From Clostridia bacterium (GTDB lineage Bacteria; Bacillota; Clostridia; Oscillospirales; CAG-272), in NCBI GenBank assembly GCA_017410065.1, contig JAFQRL010000004.1:5856-69855 (forward strand): DNA of 64,000 bases, read 5' to 3'. The translations under genes were made by a program, and so were the position numbers. The notes under the pieces are model-generated. The model did no database searches. It was not told where the DNA came from and saw nothing but the letters and a program-made list of their open reading frames with translations. Shown here one piece after another: positions 2,897 through 49,413 of this stretch; position 1 is the first letter of the stretch, and every line of letters begins with the position of its first letter.

Positions 2897-3841
2897 TTAT
2901 TTATATTCGTTTTTTTCCTTAAGCACCTTATAGATGGATCTATAAGAGGCAAGCCTGCTCTCGGGTATCCTTCCCTCTGCCGCCGCCTGTGCAACGGCGC
3001 ACTCGTCTGCTCCCTCGCCAACGTGGGCACAGTCTGCGTAGCGGCATTTTCCAACGTAGGGAAGCAGCTCGCGGAAGGTTGGAAGGAGCTCGTCCAGGGA
3101 GAAGAAATCAAACCTTGCGAAGTCCACGAGAGAAAAGCCGGGAGTATCCGCAAGGAAGCCTGCCGAGGCTCCCTCTCCTATATCGAATATCTCAACGTGA
3201 CGGGTGGTGTGCCTGCCTCGCTCGATCTTTCGGGATATCTCGGCGGTTGCCAGAGAGAGCCCTGGGAAAAGCGCGTTCATCAGAGTCGATTTTCCAACGC
3301 CCGAGGCACCCGCGAAGGCGGCGGTCTTACCGTCCCTTATATGCTCCCTTATGTAATCCGAAAGCGAGGTGAGTCCCTCTCCTCCGACAGACGAGGTTAT
3401 AAAGGCGGGTATGCCCACCTTTTCGTATATATCCCTGTATTCGACCGCCGCGCCGTCCGAAAGATCGGACTTTGTGATAACGACCACGGGCAGTATGGAA
3501 TTATGCTCGGCTATGGCAACAAGCTTATCCACAGTCTCGATAACGGGACTTGGCTTCATAGCGGCAAATACTATAAAAAGATAATCAAGATTTGCAAGAG
3601 GGGGGCGAATTAGGGCGTTTTTTCTTTCCTCGATCTCCGCGATAACTATGCTATCGGGGGTATCCTCATCCACGCTGACCTTAACGTTATCGCCGATGAG
3701 CACCTTGGAATCGTCTCTTTTCAGATTACCCTTGGCGCGACAGGCGAGGCGCGAGAGGCTTCCGTCCTCCTCTATTATCCGCACATCAAAAAGTCCGCCC
3801 AGACCCTTGACGACCTTTCCGCGTTTTTCGATAGCCTGCAT
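2897..3841 (-). CDS. rsgA: ribosome small-subunit-dependent GTPase A
   Basis: N-terminal OB-like segment GKVVKGLGGLFDV, circularly permuted GTPase motifs (VITKSDL before GASGVGKSTLMNAL), C-terminal Cys/His cluster CRYADCAHVGEGADC. Confidence 0.9.
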   Translation of the reverse strand: MQAIEKRGKVVKGLGGLFDVRIIEEDGSLSRLACRAKGNLKRDDSKVLIGDNVKVSVDEDTPDSIVIAEIEERKNALIRPPLANLDYLFIVFAAMKPSPVIETVDKLVAIAEHNSILPVVVITKSDLSDGAAVEYRDIYEKVGIPAFITSSVGGEGLTSLSDYIREHIRDGKTAAFAGASGVGKSTLMNALFPGLSLATAEISRKIERGRHTTRHVEIFDIGEGASAGFLADTPGFSLVDFARFDFFSLDELLPTFRELLPYVGKCRYADCAHVGEGADECAVAQAAAEGRIPESRLASYRSIYKVLKEKNEYK

Positions 3842-3844
3842 TTA

Positions 3845-4180
3845 TTACTCCGAGAGGCACGCGGAGATGCGGCGCTCAATTGTACCGATGCTTTTCTTGA
3901 CGAGCTTATAGTTCTCCTCGGTGCTTTTCCCTTCAAGAAGAAGGACCTTCGATACGAAGGATATCTCCGAGCAGGCATCAAGCGCAAGATTGAGGCGGCG
4001 GACGAGGCTGATCTCGTCTCTCGAATATTTGAGGGAGCTGAGGGCAGATCCCAATGAGATCACAGATGCGAAAAGCTTTTCCTTATAAGGGTCGCCCTGT
4101 ACATCCGAGCCGAAAAGCCTTGATACAAGCACGGCAAACTCTGCCGCATCATCGCGAAGCTGATTTCTGTTTGTTGCCAT
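3845..4180 (-). CDS. small helical hypothetical protein
   Basis: 111-aa ORF tightly packed between rlmN and rsgA, where B. subtilis has prpC-prkC. No motif recognised. Confidence 0.45.
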   Translation of the reverse strand: MATNRNQLRDDAAEFAVLVSRLFGSDVQGDPYKEKLFASVISLGSALSSLKYSRDEISLVRRLNLALDACSEISFVSKVLLLEGKSTEENYKLVKKSIGTIERRISACLSE

Positions 4181-4199
4181 AATTAACTTCTCCTCATTT

Positions 4200-5252
4200 T
4201 TATTTTAGATCGTTATTCATACTTTGACGGCGAAGCTGACCGCAAGCGGCGTTTACGTCGCTGCCGAGCCTTCTTCTCACGGTTGCAACAACTCCGCGCG
4301 CTTCAAGAGCCGCGGCGAAGGCGTTCACCGATTCTGCGGAGCCTCGCTTAAAGCCTGTTTCCTCCACCTCGTTCACTCTGATGAGATTTACGTGCAGAGG
4401 TGCGCCTGTGCCGCGAAAGGCGGAGGTGAGCAGGGTCGCAAGCTCGCTTGCATCCGACTGCGTGTCGTTTTTACCCGAAATAAGGGTGTATTCAAATGAT
4501 ATGCGCCTGCCTGTTTTCTTGTAATAATCAACGCAAGCGGTGAGCAGCTCGGATATATTCCACTTTTTATTAACAGGCATTATTGCCGAGCGCTGCTCGT
4601 CGGTTGCCGCGTGAAGCGAGATCGAAAGAGTGATGGGAAGATCCACCTCGGCAAGCTTATATATCCCGGGCACGACGCCGCAGGTTGAAAGGGATATATG
4701 GCGATAGCCGATGTTGATGCCGTCGGGATGGTTAACGAGCTTCAGGAATTTCACCACGTTATCGAAATTATCAAGAGGCTCACCGATGCCCATCATAACT
4801 ATGTTTGACACCCTCTCGCCCGAATCACGAGCCGCTACCGCGACCTGACCGAGAAGCTCGGAGGGCAGAAGGTCGCGCACCTTGCCGCCGATGGTAGAGG
4901 CACAGAAGCGACAGCCCATATAACAGCCCACCTGGCTGGATATGCAAAGCGAATTTCCGTGCTTATATTTCATCAGCACGCTTTCAATGCAGGAGCCGTC
5001 GTGAAGGCGGAATAAGTATTTTACCGTACCGTCTATCTTTGAGACGAGCTTGCGCTCGACCCTTGGAAGCGAATCAAGAGCCTCCTCCCGAAGTCGGGCG
5101 CGAAGCGGCTTTGAAAGCATTGTGAGCTCCTCTATAAGCGAGCCGATATTAAGCCTCGGAAAGACCTGCTTTGCGCGGAATTTTGGCTCGCCGAGCGAGA
5201 GGAAATACTCCTCCAGCTCCTCGGGGAGCATAGAATAAATATCGGTTTTCAT
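4200..5252 (-). CDS. rlmN: 23S rRNA/tRNA adenine-C2 methyltransferase RlmN (radical SAM)
   Basis: CxxxCxxC radical-SAM motif in SSQVGCYMGCRFCAS, plus MGIGEPL. The likely start is MKTDIY at 5252, which overlaps the rsmB stop by 1 nt (TAATG). The ORF-track start at 5291 is probably too long. Confidence 0.9.
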   Translation of the reverse strand: MKTDIYSMLPEELEEYFLSLGEPKFRAKQVFPRLNIGSLIEELTMLSKPLRARLREEALDSLPRVERKLVSKIDGTVKYLFRLHDGSCIESVLMKYKHGNSLCISSQVGCYMGCRFCASTIGGKVRDLLPSELLGQVAVAARDSGERVSNIVMMGIGEPLDNFDNVVKFLKLVNHPDGINIGYRHISLSTCGVVPGIYKLAEVDLPITLSISLHAATDEQRSAIMPVNKKWNISELLTACVDYYKKTGRRISFEYTLISGKNDTQSDASELATLLTSAFRGTGAPLHVNLIRVNEVEETGFKRGSAESVNAFAAALEARGVVATVRRRLGSDVNAACGQLRRQSMNNDLK

Positions 5253-44175: not shown

Positions 44176-44250
44176 GCTGGTGTGGCTCAATGGCAGAGCA
44201 GCTGATTTGTAATCAGCAGGTTGTTGGTTCGACTCCGATCACCAGCTCCA
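44176..44250 (+). tRNA. tRNA-Thr (anticodon UGU), CCA encoded
   Basis: Hand-folded cloverleaf. Acceptor GCTGGTG/CACCAGC, anticodon arm GCTGA-TTTGTAA-TCAGC, T-loop TTCGACT, 3' TCCA. Confidence 0.8.
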
Positions 44251-44256
44251 ATATTG

Positions 44257-44341
44257 GGGGGAATTCCCGAGCGGCCAAAGGGGGCAGACTGTAAATCTGT
44301 TGTCACTGACTTCGCTGGTCCGAATCCAGCTTCCCCCACCA
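44257..44341 (+). tRNA. tRNA-Tyr (anticodon GUA), class II long variable arm, CCA encoded
   Basis: Acceptor GGGGGAA/TTCCCCC, anticodon arm GCAGA-CTGTAAA-TCTGT, long variable arm, T-arm GCTGG-TCCGAAT-CCAGC, ACCA end. Confidence 0.8.
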
Positions 44342-44344
44342 AAC

Positions 44345-44376
44345 AAAAAACCGACCCTTGCGGTCGGTTTTTTGTT
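44345..44376 (+). terminator. intrinsic terminator after the tRNA pair (CCGACC-CTTGC-GGTCGG followed by a T-run)
   Basis: AAAAAACCGACCCTTGCGGTCGGTTTTTTGTTT, read directly. Confidence 0.8.
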
Positions 44377-44568
44377 TGGTTAGGGAGGCATTGGATTCGG
44401 CTAGGCACTTGCAAAGCAAGTGCGCTGGTTCGCATACCGCGCCTTGAGATCGGGGAGCTTGCTCACCAGGCGATAGGCGCAGGTATCTTCGCCAAAGGCG
44501 AATACCCAGCTTCCAAAAAAGCAGTATCATATTGATACAGCTTTTTTTATCCATTACGGAGTAATGGC

Positions 44569-44746
44569 ATATCATCACCGCACGAAGTGTGGTGGATATC
44601 ATCAAAAAGAGCGATTCCCTCGCTCTTTTTTGCATATCATCACGCATTAGCGTGTATTAAAACTCCGTAATGATGATATACAATGCTCCGCATTGATGAT
44701 ATACTCGTCCAAAAGCGAGATATTCTCGTTTTCGGACAGATGATAT
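44569..44746. repeat. array of six ATATCATCA motifs (three forward, three reverse), each next to a short hairpin
   Basis: Forward copies at 44569, 44596 and 44634. Reverse copies (TGATGATAT) at 44671, 44694 and 44739 (the last one partial). Confidence 0.8.
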
Positions 44747-44948
44747 ACACTTTCTGCGAAAGTGATTAAATCTGCAAGCCTTTTTGTTTTTAGCAGTAAA
44801 AAACAAATCGTTCTCTTTATACCCCTTTTGTTCAATTTATGGGGTATCGTTCAATTTATGATTCAGTTAAATATATTCTTGATTTTGGTCGGATTATATG
44901 ATATAATAAACTCACCGACATATAAGAATTTATTTAGGAGAAATAAAT

Positions 44949-45272
44949 ATGTTTGGATTATTTGCTAAAAAAGTTATGAACGAAGAAGCCGCCAAGTCTT
45001 TTTGGAAATGGTTTGCAGAAAAAGAGGAGTGGATTATCAGCTGTATTTCCAATCACGACTCAACCTTTATATGGGCAATCGATGAAAAGTTAAAACCGGT
45101 ATTCCCTTATTTCAAAGGAGAACTCGAATTCCAGCTTGGATACAACAATAGCGTTGGAGAATTTTTCTTCTTCCACTTTGGAAACAAAGACCTTGCTCGT
45201 GATGGTGAAGCCTTGGGAAGGATGATGCCTCCAGAAATCGCAAACAAATGGAAACTTATTCTGGAAAAATAA
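44949..45272 (+). CDS. small hypothetical protein (107 aa) inside the tRNA-adjacent insert
   Basis: AGGAG RBS 8 nt before the ATG. AT-rich codon usage unlike the core genes. No motif recognised. Confidence 0.5.
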   Translation: MFGLFAKKVMNEEAAKSFWKWFAEKEEWIISCISNHDSTFIWAIDEKLKPVFPYFKGELEFQLGYNNSVGEFFFFHFGNKDLARDGEALGRMMPPEIANKWKLILEK

Positions 45273-45399
45273 ATTGTCCAATTTCGATTTATAAAACTAA
45301 AAACAGATGCAAACCCTTGTAGGAAAATCCACCCAACATTCTAAAATTTGCACCCATTTTGAAATGGTATCAAAATTTTAGATTACTCACAAACAAAAA

Positions 45400-45761
45400 C
45401 CGACCCTTGGGCGACCTGCGATAAAGCAGGTTTTACCTTCCGAAAAAGAAAAAAGGAGTACGGACGATTTGTTCGTACTCCTTTTCACATACCTTGCTTG
45501 CAAGGTATGGTGTGTTATACTTTGTATTTCGGGTGGTAAATATAAGTGAAATGTTTTGCTGCCGCAAAACGTGAAATAATATGCTGCTCGCATATTGTGA
45601 AATATCTCACTTCGTTCGATGTGAAATGAAATTTGCCCACGTTCGCGGAGCGAACATTTCACATTTGCGAAGCAAATATTTCACCGCGAAGCGATTTCAC
45701 TTGCCCGCAAGGGCAAATTTCGTTGGGCGGCCTGCTTTACAGTAGGTCGCCCAAGGGTCGG
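45400..45761. repeat. 362-bp palindromic element: 31-nt terminal inverted repeats enclosing GTGAAAT/ATTTCAC modules and mini-hairpins
   Basis: Left arm CCGACCCTTGGGCGACCTGCGATAAAGCAGG (45400-45430) against right arm CCTGCTTTACAGTAGGTCGCCCAAGGGTCGG (45731-45761). GTGAAAT at 45546, 45571, 45597 and 45621. ATTTCAC at 45656, 45678 and 45694. Confidence 0.8.
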
Positions 45762-45903
45762 GACAATCGTTTTATATTATATAATATTATTTAATATTAT
45801 TTTATTATTTTTATGTTGCTTATATTAAATATATATGATACAATAGTTGTGCAAGGGAAATGATATCCTTCGTCATTTTTCAAAATTTTCTGCGAGGTGC
45901 AAT

Positions 45904-46341
45904 TTGAACATCGTTATGTGTGTTGGAGACAGCGGCGAGATGCTTTTTAACGGTCGCCGTGTCAGTCGCGACGAGGTCGCCTGCGGCGATATACTGAAGC
46001 AGCTTAAGGGCGAACGGCTTTATATCAAGCCTTATTCACAAAAGCTTTTCGCTCCATTTGAGGGCAATGCAAATCTTCCAACCGTTTGCGAGGACCCACT
46101 CGGGACAGCCTCTGACGGCGAGTGGTGCTTTATTGAGGATGAGGATATTATGCCCTATTTCGATAAGATCGAAAAGCTTCTTATTTATAATTGGAATTTG
46201 AATTACCCTTACGATATGAGATTAGATCTTGACTACGTGAGAGGCAAGCTCAGGCTATCGGAAATGAAAAAGCTGGTTGGCAAGGCTCACGATAAGATCA
46301 CCCGCGAGCTATACAGAAAGGATTACAGGAGTAAAATTTGA
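45904..46341 (+). CDS. small cytoplasmic hypothetical protein, translationally coupled to the downstream nuclease
   Basis: Likely TTG start at 45904 behind GAGGTG (ORF track gives 45847). The stop TGA overlaps the ATG of the next gene (TGATG). No signal peptide. Confidence 0.5.
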   Translation: MNIVMCVGDSGEMLFNGRRVSRDEVACGDILKQLKGERLYIKPYSQKLFAPFEGNANLPTVCEDPLGTASDGEWCFIEDEDIMPYFDKIEKLLIYNWNLNYPYDMRLDLDYVRGKLRLSEMKKLVGKAHDKITRELYRKDYRSKI

Positions 46342-47273
46342 TGAAAAGAACGAGTGCATTTTTAAGATTATCTGCTTTGGCCGTTTGTCTTATTTTGATA
46401 ATCAGCCAGCTTGGCTCCTGCTTTGAGCCTGAAAAGCCCAGTGCGGGCAACGGTCCGAGTGTGGACGAGGGTGAGCTCCCCGACCATTCGGGCGGTGCGG
46501 CATACGTTGCCGTAAACGGTAATATCCCTTATTTTGAGGCTGACGATATCGTTTATGAGTCCTACGAATATTATTCCGAGCTTGACGGTCTTGGCAGATG
46601 CGGCGTTGCGGTTGCCTGCATAGGCACAGACATTATGCCAACCGAGGACAGAGAGGGCTCGCTCACGGTTACTCCCTCGGGTTGGGAATACAAGGGCAAA
46701 TCAAACAATAATACATATTCCTTTGTGGACGGCGGCTTCATATATAACCGCTGCCATCTCATCGGCTATCAGCTAACAGGCGAAAATTCCAATGAGAAAA
46801 ACCTTATAACAGGAACAAGATATCTTAATATGAAGGGTATGCTTCCCTTTGAAAATCTGGTTAAGGCGTTTGTTGTTGACACCGAGATGCACGTTATGTA
46901 TCGCGTTACTCCCATATTTGAGGGCAACGATTACGTGGCGAAGGGCGTGCTGATGGAGGGCTATTCGGTTGAGGACGACGGCGAGGGCATCTGCTTCTGC
47001 ATTTTTGCATACAACATTCAGCCCGGCGTTATCATCGATTATTACACAGGCGAGAACAAGGCTGACCCCGAATACAACGAGGGCTCCGAGGAGACTGTGA
47101 GCGCGGTTTACGTGCTTAATATTTCCACAAAGAAATACCATCTTCCCACCTGCACCTATGCAAAGTCTATGAGCTCCGACAACCGCTTCAATTACACAGG
47201 CGAGCCTGAGGATTTTAAAACTCTTTATCCCGATTATTTACCCTGCGGATCCTGCAATCCCGATCAAAAATAA
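46341..47273 (+). CDS. secreted lipoprotein DNA/RNA non-specific endonuclease (EndA / DNA-entry nuclease family) with a C-terminal Cys-rich Ada-like metal-binding module
   Basis: Signal peptide with LGSC lipobox. Nuclease core YNRCHLIGYQLTGENSNEKNLITGTRYLN. C-terminal KKYHLPTCTY...YLPCGSCNP. Confidence 0.75.
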   Translation: MKRTSAFLRLSALAVCLILIISQLGSCFEPEKPSAGNGPSVDEGELPDHSGGAAYVAVNGNIPYFEADDIVYESYEYYSELDGLGRCGVAVACIGTDIMPTEDREGSLTVTPSGWEYKGKSNNNTYSFVDGGFIYNRCHLIGYQLTGENSNEKNLITGTRYLNMKGMLPFENLVKAFVVDTEMHVMYRVTPIFEGNDYVAKGVLMEGYSVEDDGEGICFCIFAYNIQPGVIIDYYTGENKADPEYNEGSEETVSAVYVLNISTKKYHLPTCTYAKSMSSDNRFNYTGEPEDFKTLYPDYLPCGSCNPDQK

Positions 47274-47292: not shown

Positions 47293-49413
47293 ATGATGAT
47301 TAAAAGATTATCCTTCGTCAAATTCCTGATCTTGAGCCTTGTGCTTGCGATTGCCCTCAGCTTCTGCGCCTGCACGCCTCAAGGCGGCGGCGAGACCGAC
47401 GGTGCGAGCGACCTTCCCGCTATTTCTTATTTCAGGATAAGCGGCCCCTCCGAGCTTGAGCTTGAGCTTGGGGACGAGCATCAGCTTGTTATAGACCACC
47501 CCGCCGAGGTCCTCTCTCACGTTGCTTGGTCGGTTGAGGGCAGCTCGGTTACCGTTTCGGGCGGCAAGCTTTCTGCGGTCGCGCTCGGCGAATCGACTGT
47601 CACGGCGACCTATGGCGCGCTCTCGGACAGCGTGAAGGTGACTGTTGTTGAGGAGGGCTCGGGCGATACTCCCGACACTCCCGATACTCCCGATACTCCC
47701 GACGCGGGCTTTGCTATCAGCAACATTCTGAACGGAACGGACGGCGAAAGCTACACCGTGCGCGGAACGGTCGTTGCATACAACGCGCAAAGCTTCCTTA
47801 TCAATGATTCCACAGACTCCGTGCTCGTTTATATGGGCTACACCTGGTCGCCCGACGTTAAGCTTGGCGACTTTATTGAGGTCAGCGGTGCACGTGCGGT
47901 ATACGGCTCGGCAGTTCAGTTTGCACAGGGGTCGACATACAAAAAGCTTGATAGCGCAAGCTACTCCAAGCCCACTCCCGCAGAGCCCTCTGTGGCAGAG
48001 CTGAACGCATATTCCTCGGCGGCGAGCGTTAAGCCGAGCTTCGTTAAGCTCACGGGCGTGCTCTCTATTTCCTCTGACGGAAAGTATTATAACTTCAATA
48101 TTCCCGGTGCCACCATCGTTGGCAGCCTTACCTACCCCATCTCCTCCGACGTTATTCTTCTTAAGAATATGGACGGCTCCACCCTTGAGGTCGAGGGCTG
48201 GATCACAGGCGTTACAGGCGGAGGTAAATATCTCAGCATTATAACCACAAGCATCACCGAGATCGAATCGGGCTCCTCGGGCGGAGACGAGGGCGGCTCG
48301 GGCAGCAGCTCATCGGGTATCGTTATCGGCGGCGAGGAGATCCCCTCATATTCGGGTAACGGCTACTACGTTGTGAACGGCAACAACCCCTTCTTCTCGG
48401 AGACAGACAAGGCGTTCACAGGCTATCAGTATTCAGCACTTGACAGCAGAGGCCGAGCAACGGGTGCTTTTGCAAGGCTTACCACAAGCCTTCTTCCCAC
48501 AGGCGAGAGAGACGATATCTCCTCTATGAGACCCTCGGGCTGGAAGCAGGCTTATTACACCTCCATAGGTCTTGATCACCTCTACGACCGCTCTCACCTT
48601 CTCGCTCATATGTTTATGGACGACGACTTGCATATCGAAAACTTCGTCACAGGAACGGTTTATATGAACCAGCAGAATATGACGACCTTTGAGAATATGG
48701 TGTGCGGCGTTGTTAAGAGCGGCTCGGACGTGCTTTACAGAGTTACTCCCATTTACATCGAAAGCAACCTTGTGTGCAGCGGTCTGCTTATTGAGGCATA
48801 CTCAATTGAGGATGGCGGCGACGATATTTGCTTCTGCGTATTCCTTTATAACGTTCAGCCCGGTGTTGATATCGATTATGCAACAGGCTCAAGCTCGCTT
48901 GCAAGCACGGGCAGCGGCTCGGGTAGCGGCTCGGGCAGCACCGATACTCCCTCCACTCCCAACCCGGGTGACGCCGTGAGTGGAGACGTTGTTTTCAACC
49001 TTGGCGCAAACGGCTCTGCCGAGCACGCGGACGGTGCCTCAAAGACCACCGCCACCTTTACCGAGGGCGAGCATTCCCTTAACATTACGGACGGCACTCA
49101 ATTCTACACAGGTGCCTTTGATGCAAAGGGCAATTCCTGCATCAAGCTTGGAGCGACCAGCAAGGTCGGAAGCTTCAGCTTCACCGTTGGCGCAGATGTC
49201 TCAAAGGTATACATCAAGGTTGCGGGCTACAAGGCAAACACAGGTATTCTGGGCGTCAACGGAGTCTCTCACAATATATCAACAAAGTCTAACGACGGCG
49301 CGTATACGGTGATCGAGGTCGACACCTCGTCGAGCAAGACTGTAAACGTCAGCACCCAAAGCGGCGGTTACAGAGTTATGATAGACTCAATTGAGCTTGT
49401 CGTTAATAAATAA
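47293..49413 (+). CDS. large secreted lipoprotein nuclease: Ig-like (Big_2-type) domain, two OB-fold-like segments, EndA-family nuclease domain and a C-terminal domain of unknown function
   Basis: Lipobox ALSFCAC. Big_2-like ELGDEHQLVI...TVTATYGALSDSVKVTV. PDTPDTPDTPD linker. Nuclease core YDRSHLLAHMFMDDDLHIENFVTGTVYMN. GSGSGSGSGS linker. Confidence 0.7.
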   Translation: MMIKRLSFVKFLILSLVLAIALSFCACTPQGGGETDGASDLPAISYFRISGPSELELELGDEHQLVIDHPAEVLSHVAWSVEGSSVTVSGGKLSAVALGESTVTATYGALSDSVKVTVVEEGSGDTPDTPDTPDTPDAGFAISNILNGTDGESYTVRGTVVAYNAQSFLINDSTDSVLVYMGYTWSPDVKLGDFIEVSGARAVYGSAVQFAQGSTYKKLDSASYSKPTPAEPSVAELNAYSSAASVKPSFVKLTGVLSISSDGKYYNFNIPGATIVGSLTYPISSDVILLKNMDGSTLEVEGWITGVTGGGKYLSIITTSITEIESGSSGGDEGGSGSSSSGIVIGGEEIPSYSGNGYYVVNGNNPFFSETDKAFTGYQYSALDSRGRATGAFARLTTSLLPTGERDDISSMRPSGWKQAYYTSIGLDHLYDRSHLLAHMFMDDDLHIENFVTGTVYMNQQNMTTFENMVCGVVKSGSDVLYRVTPIYIESNLVCSGLLIEAYSIEDGGDDICFCVFLYNVQPGVDIDYATGSSSLASTGSGSGSGSGSTDTPSTPNPGDAVSGDVVFNLGANGSAEHADGASKTTATFTEGEHSLNITDGTQFYTGAFDAKGNSCIKLGATSKVGSFSFTVGADVSKVYIKVAGYKANTGILGVNGVSHNISTKSNDGAYTVIEVDTSSSKTVNVSTQSGGYRVMIDSIELVVNK

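Follow-up and report, generated by a model that had tools for sequence, protein, structure and literature searches.

A palindromic element beside the tRNA genes of a Clostridia genome contains a complete, inverted copy of Gut-1, a dyad array linked elsewhere to four-helix-bundle genes

Results

We analysed a window of 64 kb (the whole stretch of DNA under study) from the genome of a Clostridia bacterium. Both of the hairpin arrays found in this window lie beside its only two tRNA genes, and the neighbouring genes encode a glutamine amidotransferase, a 107-aa protein (ORF107), a 141/164-aa protein and nucleases (Table 1). ORF107 had no match in PADLOC, Pfam or NCBIfam; the 141-aa form of the other small protein was unmatched in PADLOC and NCBIfam, and its 164-aa form in Pfam. 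Downstream of the palindromic element described below, two adjoining genes (46338-47273 and 47293-49413) encode DNA/RNA non-specific endonucleases (PF13930) that are secreted or lipoprotein-like. Elsewhere in the window, a Ribosomal protein L10 leader (RF00557) was detected at 368-521 on the minus strand (51.7 bits). A 28-nt palindrome, part of which repeats the tRNA 3' end in inverted form, is centred on the terminator 3' of tRNA-Tyr (44329-44389), and two decayed tRNA-Tyr 3' fragments lie downstream of this palindrome (44419-44440 and 44487-44513); fragments and palindrome together look like scars of repeated insertions.

Table 1. Features of the repeat-rich region, in window coordinates.
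Feature	Position	Strand	Remarks
tRNA-Thr and tRNA-Tyr genes	44176-44341	+	tRNA scan; anchor of the repeat-rich region
Sister array	44515-44760	+	h0-type bidirectional terminator (44515-44547), then ATATCATCA x3 and TGATGATAT x3 between hairpins
ORF107 block, behaving as a mobile cassette: promoter and 107-aa ORF (44949-45272)	44773-45391	+	right boundary abuts the element
Left arm of the 31-nt inverted repeat	45400-45430		end of the 15-nt direct repeat (45395-45409) and partial second h0 copy
Long GC hairpin	45451-45485		between an A-rich run and a T-run; terminator-like both ways
Complete Gut-1-type dyad array	45546-45725	-	from sequence; layout shared by 83 distinct copies; aligned with 49 relatives
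3' domain, three longer hairpins joined by AUUUCAC	45546-45650	-	plus strand is a weak inverted Gut-1 copy
Distal X'+AUUUC segment	45628-45638	-	inverted repeat with 45711-45721 (stem P1)
5' domain, short hairpins joined by GUGAAAU	45651-45725	-	curated Gut-1 match
h1 (X-loop-X', TTGCCC/GGGCAA) and GAAAU	45701-45721	-	5' arm common to P1
h0, palindromic hairpin just before the array	45723-45754		inverted repeat
Right arm of the 31-nt inverted repeat	45731-45761		3' part of h0 and CAAGGGTCGG

The region from 45400 to 45761 had been described in a sequence-only reading as a palindrome of 362 bp packed with short repeats and small hairpins, and its arms, heptamers and hairpins were all recovered here. 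A repeat search of the window returned terminal arms that are 90% complementary and 300 nt apart; compared directly, they consist of 18 identical positions, a 5-nt stretch with 2 matches and 8 identical positions, close to the 17 bp plus 9 bp around a 5x5 internal loop given in that reading. The four GTGAAAT copies reported at 24-26 bp spacing lie on the plus strand at 45546, 45571, 45597 and 45621 (spacing 25, 26 and 24), and of the three or four copies reported in the opposite sense, three lie on the minus strand at 45656, 45678 and 45694, together with a degenerate fourth heptamer, ATTTCG, at 45717-45722. Seven of the 15 GTGAAAT copies in the window sit inside 155 bp, and shuffles of the whole 64 kb gave an expectation of 9.55 copies. 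All six of the reported mini-hairpins are present, and the long GC hairpin was confirmed with 15-nt arms that are 93% complementary. Both strands of 45390-45770 are predicted to fold much more stably than shuffled sequences (z = -16.8 and -15.1, one value per strand).

On the minus strand, the long hairpin is followed by TTCTTTTT; its sole mismatch is G.T on the plus strand and A.C on the minus strand, and it was not flagged by a consensus terminator scan. A variant that lacks the terminator-like hairpin, with 45431 connected to 45501 through GCGC, was seen in a contig of two DNA runs in which the host strain is also present; its depth is about that of the host genome. A candidate plus-strand promoter (TTGCTT-16-TGtTATACT, ~45495-45530) was dropped because it is not kept in the closest relative, locus L022.

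The 5' domain of the array matches the Rfam family Gut-1 (RF01706) on the minus strand with 69.2 bits, against a gathering threshold of 50, over model positions 1-77 of 77; a plus-strand match at 45512-45608 (27.2 bits) remains below this threshold. The sequence-only reading had been unable to assign the element to a named family, and had proposed an Rfam scan and named a match to a described RNA family as a result that would speak against it. Half of the element gives such a match, and the claim that it belongs to no named family is overturned. The 362-bp palindrome is a complete, intact copy of the catalogued Gut-1 element together with flanking hairpins. Gut-1 was first described from human-gut metagenomes and was rated 'certainly RNA' by covariation (Weinberg et al. 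2010, PMC2864571); published as a 77-nt motif for which no organism, gene association or function was given, it has been in Rfam since 2010 as a gut-only 'orphan'. In the flanked alignment of the same paper (PMC2864571), some rows show GUGAUAU modules and then AUAUCAC modules, so that the complementary AUAUCAC/AUUUCAC array is visible there, and one row lies directly 3' of a tRNA gene. Our literature search found Gut-1 mentioned nowhere beyond the original description, and a search with GUGAAAU returned microRNA papers only.

The true Gut-1 unit is a dyad of ~180 nt, not 77 nt, and the Rfam model covers only half of it. Read on the Gut-1 strand, the general layout is h0, CAACGAAAU, h1 (X-loop-X') and three GUGAAAU-hairpin modules, then GUG-X'-AUUUC and four AUUUCAC copies between longer hairpins. 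The array of the window, on the minus strand, has the order CAACGAAAU-h1-GUGAAAU-h2-GUGAAAU-h3-GUGAAAU-h4-GUG-X'-AUUUC in its first half and AUUUCAC-h5-AUUUCAC-h6-AUUUCAC-h7-AUUUCAC in its second. Modules are spaced by ~19 nt in the GUGAAAU half, which has short stems, and by ~25 nt in the AUUUCAC half. All 20 related loci that were scanned with Rfam (17 metagenome loci fetched by the four-helix-bundle protein described below, plus L022, L037 and L073) passed the Gut-1 threshold on the tRNA/gene strand, and in 5 of these 20 relatives the second half passed it on the opposite strand.

A pattern scan of one genome per species yielded 120 loci, 27 of which have the same convergent (dyad) arrangement, mostly in Clostridia/Eubacteriales genomes assembled from ruminant and human guts. 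Among 115 viral pattern matches only 3 were dyads, and a link to phages was dropped. The sequence-only reading had also proposed a search for other copies, and the same layout indeed recurs in 83 distinct copies from gut Clostridia. When these were compared, the first-half hairpins (n = 188) comprised 106 distinct sequences with 95.8% Watson-Crick pairing, as opposed to 27% in shuffled spacers, and the second-half hairpins comprised 166 distinct sequences, the heptamer being the sole constant part. Loops are chiefly TNC triloops in the first half (TTC 71, TGC 26) and chiefly of the G..A type in the second (GAA 52, GCAA 15, GCA 14). The ATTTCAC-reading strand thus has G..A loops in both halves, and the element is a true dyad.

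The window sequence and 49 relatives were aligned with MAFFT (50 sequences), which misplaced h2-h4. Changes on both sides were seen in 34 of 40 local pairs, and covariation amounted to 0.452 versus 0.163 in shuffles, none of 500 shuffles reaching 0.452. On this comparative evidence, the hairpins are maintained by compensatory change. A further, long-range stem, P1, whose covariation is as good as that of the hairpins, is formed by GAAAU+X with the central X'+AUUUC (in the window, 45711-45721 with 45628-45638); it is 99.1% paired in the 50 sequences and has 66 compensatory cells, a count matched by 0 of 500 shuffles. The hairpin h1 is 98.7% paired, with 5 of its 6 pairs changed on both sides. 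Since P1 and h1 use a common strand, they are mutually exclusive alternatives. In h5 (45604-45620), tandem G.A/A.G mismatches lie between covarying pairs on the minus strand only, the plus strand reading T.C/C.T; the same mismatch pattern was found in L022, L034, L073, L114, L115 and L162.

The heptamers show hardly any variation within the alignment of the GTGAAAT family. Where heptamer variants occur, they switch in both halves together (ATGAAAT/ATTTCAT, GTGAAGT/ACTTCAC, GCTAAAT/ATTTAGC and GATGAAATC/GATTTCATC), and the upstream array of the window is likewise such a paired variant, ATATCATCA/TGATGATAT. A four-way-junction ladder of nested GUGAAAU:AUUUCAC pairs was considered and rejected: ATGAAAT-type arrays keep a G-type first heptamer in each half, contrary to mirror pairing, and the second-half heptamer in Akkermansia is not complementary to the first.

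Two loci with tandem arrangements were recorded. L173 carries four complete Gut-1 arrays in tandem (A-B-A'-B', 3434-4350), gene-free between them; tRNA-Thr/tRNA-Tyr and genes for a four-helix-bundle protein and a kinase-like protein lie upstream, and a transposase gene adjoins the arrays. The Akkermansia locus L006 (2314-3300 and 5744-6000) holds three tandem units, each with about three exact GTGAAAT copies, a GTGCAAT variant and hairpins; the first two units continue with four ACGAGAT-type heptamers, again with hairpins, and these heptamers are not complementary to GTGAAAT. In the same locus, a GATATAA/TTATATC array lies directly 5' of a four-helix-bundle gene.

The 31-nt arms that give the element its palindromic look are a local feature and do not define the family: they derive from two copies of h0, the palindrome at its flank, and two copies of a palindrome necessarily appear as an inverted repeat. 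L022 retains just a 10-bp arm pairing, ACCTGCTTTA/TAAAGCAGGT, and the flanks of other copies are unrelated. The flanks of the element (CAAACAAAAA before CCGACC, and GACAATCG after GGTCGG) share no common direct repeat, and the 15-nt repeat at 45395 is part of the neighbouring ORF107 insertion, not a target-site duplication. The suggestion of a MITE-like element was accordingly given up, as there is no target-site duplication, the arms are unconserved in L022 and the copies are bound to tRNA loci.

Relatives of the array follow tRNA genes with a fixed polarity. The end of a same-strand tRNA gene lies at most 75 nt upstream of the array in 38 of 69 cases, compared with 0 of 69 for the opposite strand, and the array-linked tRNA genes represent 13 tRNA identities. 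Some of the arrays without a complete tRNA gene follow tRNA 3' fragments or a GC hairpin; in L101 the array is located 9 nt before the next tRNA, within a tRNA operon. The usual order is tRNA gene, palindromic terminator, array, promoter and TIGR02436 gene. In the tRNA-linked relatives the h0 position is a bidirectional terminator (A-run/stem/T-run), and of the 29 arrays listed, 26 are preceded by an h0. In L090 and in a joint of run X15, tRNA-Tyr is directly followed by a Gut-1 array in the usual orientation. Because the tRNA-Tyr of relatives precedes the array in this orientation, the copy in the window is inverted.

The small gene 3' of several arrays matches the NCBIfam family TIGR02436, 'four helix bundle protein' (98.5 bits), and the Pfam record for such genes in other loci is PF05635, the Avd / 23S-rRNA-IVS family. 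Proteins of TIGR02436/PF05635 are widespread, and to our knowledge a role has been assigned only to the Avd members of retroelements. A Gut-1-type array, matching the gene in strand and always oriented alike, is present upstream of 59 of 65 four-helix-bundle genes, the 65 being the metagenome loci fetched by the four-helix-bundle protein that have enough upstream sequence. Array end and start codon are 25-90 nt apart, and between them a promoter-like sequence of the extended -10 type usually adjoins the last heptamer. Proteins of the xSKLR type go with GTGAAAT (45/46) and those of the ENKL type with ATGAAAT (18/18); the heptamer variant tracks the protein subtype, a link that could be co-inheritance. 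A four-helix-bundle gene is absent from the 64-kb window, and the copy in the window is an inverted orphan; many arrays elsewhere likewise have no adjoining four-helix-bundle gene.

The second gene after the four-helix-bundle gene is highly variable (loci L131-L210, L011, L045, L067 and others). By eye, products resemble P-loop kinases, deaminases, MazG, NUDIX proteins and acetyltransferases, and many resemble no recognised type. The start of the second ORF lies 1-10 nt upstream of the last base of the stop codon in 30 of 66 cases, an overlap of 4 nt being typical.

The array is always found between a terminator and the next promoter, a placement that would suit a bidirectional transcription insulator, in which weak terminators (hairpin plus AUUU) back up h0 and block read-through from strongly transcribed tRNA operons into the cassettes behind them, as well as transcription in the reverse direction. 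The hairpin-AUUUCAC half on each strand has stable G..A loops and an excess of G:U pairs, and two module hairpins were flagged as terminator-like by the scan, as such a function would predict. However, an insulator leaves unexplained the identical heptamer in every linker of an array, the joint change in both halves with its tracking of the protein subtype, and the covarying P1/h1 alternative, and no U-tract follows the hairpins of sister arrays, ATATCATCA/TGATGATAT among them. We regard this explanation as improbable.

The array upstream of the element had been seen by the sequence-only reading as its mirror in architecture, and this holds for the ATATCATCA/TGATGATAT array at 44570-44746. It has the same three-way X pattern, 44552-44562 pairing with 44662-44672, and its half order is the reverse of that in Gut-1. 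No Rfam family matched at 44515-44760. In L123, L129 and L130, the sister array travels with the ORF107 block.

Flanked by direct repeats that derive from hairpins of the locality, the ORF107 block behaves as a small mobile cassette. The protein recurs without a single residue changed in at least five unrelated contexts, the DNA blocks being 94-98% identical, and the conserved DNA ends at 45389-45401, which is the left edge of the element. Depending on the context, the direct repeats of local hairpin or array sequence around the cassette measure 213, ~215, 106 or 57 bp; the cassette of the window has a 15-nt repeat, AAAAACCGACCCTTG, at 44346 and 45395. Cassettes start directly after the last heptamer and end directly before the next h0, and in some cases (L073, L124) one h0 copy has a loop that is the reverse complement of the loop in the other. 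The promoter and 5' leader of ORF107 (44800-44946) showed a depth far above that of the coding region in DNA runs, and a similar leader was seen before unrelated genes after arrays, e.g. in L107; the likeness suggests a common cassette promoter module.

These cassette borders, the recurrence of one identical protein between direct repeats and the inverted h0 loops all support an explanation at the DNA level, in which array and h0 would form a structure-specific site (extruded hairpins or a cruciform) for the insertion or exchange of cassettes behind tRNA genes, and the heptamers would be core sites, attC-like, for a recombinase or nuclease encoded elsewhere. The decayed tRNA 3' fragments and the palindromic junction beside the tRNA gene point in the same direction, as do stems that are near-perfect on both strands, the triloops, the dyad symmetry and the variable gene after the four-helix-bundle gene. 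On the other side, one tyrosine recombinase in 27 loci does not amount to a consistent nearby recombinase; the direct-repeat copies are ~9% diverged, with whole hairpins replaced, and so do not represent recent duplications of a target; some tandem arrays have no cargo; the polarity of the array is fixed relative to the tRNA; and the non-Watson-Crick pairs of h5 are strand-specific. We consider a DNA-level element possible, if on balance unlikely. The earlier proposal of a recombination substrate retains the duplication of arrays on both sides of inserted cassettes in its favour and has the lack of a consistent recombinase nearby against it.

Metatranscriptome contigs, which carry no strand information, pile up on 45594-45725. 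DNA metagenomes show the same peak, with depths of 1000-2300 versus 10-13 for the flanking genes (~100x). As the peak appears in RNA and DNA runs alike, it reflects many near-identical copies in the community, and metatranscriptome depth was ruled out as proof of expression. The earlier idea of a structured non-coding RNA beside tRNA genes agrees with the Rfam label and with the same-strand tRNA genes of relatives, and it draws no support from this depth peak.

Other observations on whether the array works as RNA or as DNA point both ways. No promoter was found before the array at any locus, the array starting right after a long, perfect terminator-like hairpin. Pairs of G:U and A:C are both near absent from the stems, and a strand test based on them was dropped because control terminators are equally clean (348 Watson-Crick, 6 G:U, 7 A:C); a weak residual bias of 53 G:U versus 29 A:C exists on the AUUUCAC-reading strand. 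Triloops of the TNC/GNA type are especially stable in DNA hairpins, and their dominance here favours DNA hairpins. For RNA speak the fixed polarity behind tRNA genes, the array inside the tRNA operon of L101, the strand-specific tandem G.A pairs of h5 and the mild G:U excess. For DNA speak, besides the triloops, the near-perfect stems, the missing promoter and the position between a strong terminator and the next promoter, the arrays duplicated around cassettes, and the h0 loops that are sometimes inverted between copies.

The same ~100-fold depth of the 5' half over the host genome in DNA metagenomes could also indicate a selfish or neutral palindromic repeat (REP/BIME- or MITE-like), spread or kept by template switching of DNA, which would hold the palindromes perfect, and without host function. 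Tandem amplification in L173 and the orphan state of the window copy would agree with this, and quasi-palindrome correction could mimic covariation. Yet the copies are bound to tRNA loci and four-helix-bundle genes and not dispersed, they have neither target-site duplications nor conserved terminal repeats, and their polarity is fixed and their module order kept across many species. A repeat of this kind is a distinctly improbable explanation.

Discussion

We tentatively favour, as plausible though short of probable, the reading that the element is a Gut-1 dyad array acting as single-stranded nucleic acid, with the four-helix-bundle protein as its partner. The form favoured for the array would be a minus-strand RNA made by read-through from upstream. 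The hairpins would serve as rigid spacers and present the repeated heptamers to a partner that recognises their sequence, the co-inherited four-helix-bundle protein being the likeliest candidate; by means of the h1/P1 alternative, the 5' domain may switch between open and closed states. The array of the window might act in trans, together with a protein whose gene lies in another part of the genome, or it might be a recent relic. The many arrays with no four-helix-bundle gene beside them, the gene-free tandems of L173 and the non-complementary second-half heptamer of Akkermansia do not fit this partner model, and the near-neutral charge of the four-helix-bundle proteins (pI 5.9-8.3) counts against their predicted role as a nucleic-acid partner.

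A wider reading, which we hold to be rather improbable, sees Gut-1-type arrays and TIGR02436 genes as a previously unrecognised platform for gene cassettes, located 3' of tRNA genes in the Firmicutes of the gut and perhaps also in Akkermansia. Here, h0 and the array would be a structure-specific site at which small promoter-bearing genes such as ORF107 are inserted and swapped; insertion would duplicate the palindromic target, and recognition of the heptamers would fall to the four-helix-bundle protein. The stacks of promiscuous small genes that lie between hairpins 3' of tRNA genes hint that gut Clostridia exchange genes in a way so far unexplored.

Taken alone, the element of the window is an ordinary and modest case, an orphan, inverted member of a known family. 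At the level of the family, judged by the literature, the dyad unit, the alternative stem, the polarity relative to tRNA genes, the link to four-helix-bundle genes and the cassette borders are new. The link between array and protein, with its tracking of heptamer by subtype, makes the function of Gut-1 testable and poses one binding question for both, be it at the level of RNA or DNA.

Among known systems, the protein-sponge RNAs of the CsrB/RsmZ type and ToxI, the repeat-array RNA antitoxin of type III toxin-antitoxin systems, resemble the array: hairpins alternate with, or stand next to, repeats of a short invariant motif, and a co-varying gene for a small protein lies just 3' of the array. 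In CsrB/RsmZ, however, the motif is GGA in the loops, whereas here a 7-mer lies in the linkers, and the protein is a four-helix bundle, not CsrA. Unlike in ToxI, the hairpins vary by unit, the second half carries the complement of the first, and the protein is not ToxN. Nor is the layout that of ToxIN: in the relatives an extended -10 sequence, not a terminator, stands between array and gene, and in the window no gene follows the array and PADLOC returned no match.

With attC sites, the arrays share sequence-variable palindromes of conserved structure, 7-nt cores and a position at the borders of small promiscuous cassettes. An attC site consists of one imperfect hairpin, in which some bases are extrahelical and the R''/R' cores are inverted (RYYYAAC...GTTRRRY), and it lies next to an integrase platform; here there are seven perfect hairpins, eight heptamers that are first direct and then inverted, and cassettes with promoters of their own. 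No inverted core pair surrounds a single stem, and no integron integrase or attI was found among the neighbouring genes. REP/BIME (REPIN) and MITE elements are likewise intergenic, palindromic and abundant, often lie at gene ends and occur in inverted groups. REP hairpins have one sequence per family and occur genome-wide, whereas all hairpins differ here (106 and 166 distinct sequences in the two halves, with no single conserved palindrome) and the arrays lie at tRNA loci.

The intervening sequences of 23S rRNA genes with a PF05635/TIGR02436 ORF presumably offer a parallel, in which the same protein family stands beside a structured, palindromic non-coding segment on a stable-RNA gene. The family also includes Avd of diversity-generating retroelements. 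The present arrays differ in that the RNA gene is a tRNA and not an rRNA gene, the protein gene lies outside the palindrome and there is no reverse transcriptase. The closest likeness in sequence is to Gut-1 itself, with the full 77-position model, the GUGAAAU linkers, the three hairpins and the gut habitat in common; what sets the arrays described here apart from Gut-1 as published is the ~180-nt dyad, the alternative closing stem, the links to tRNA and TIGR02436 genes, and the sister heptamer versions.
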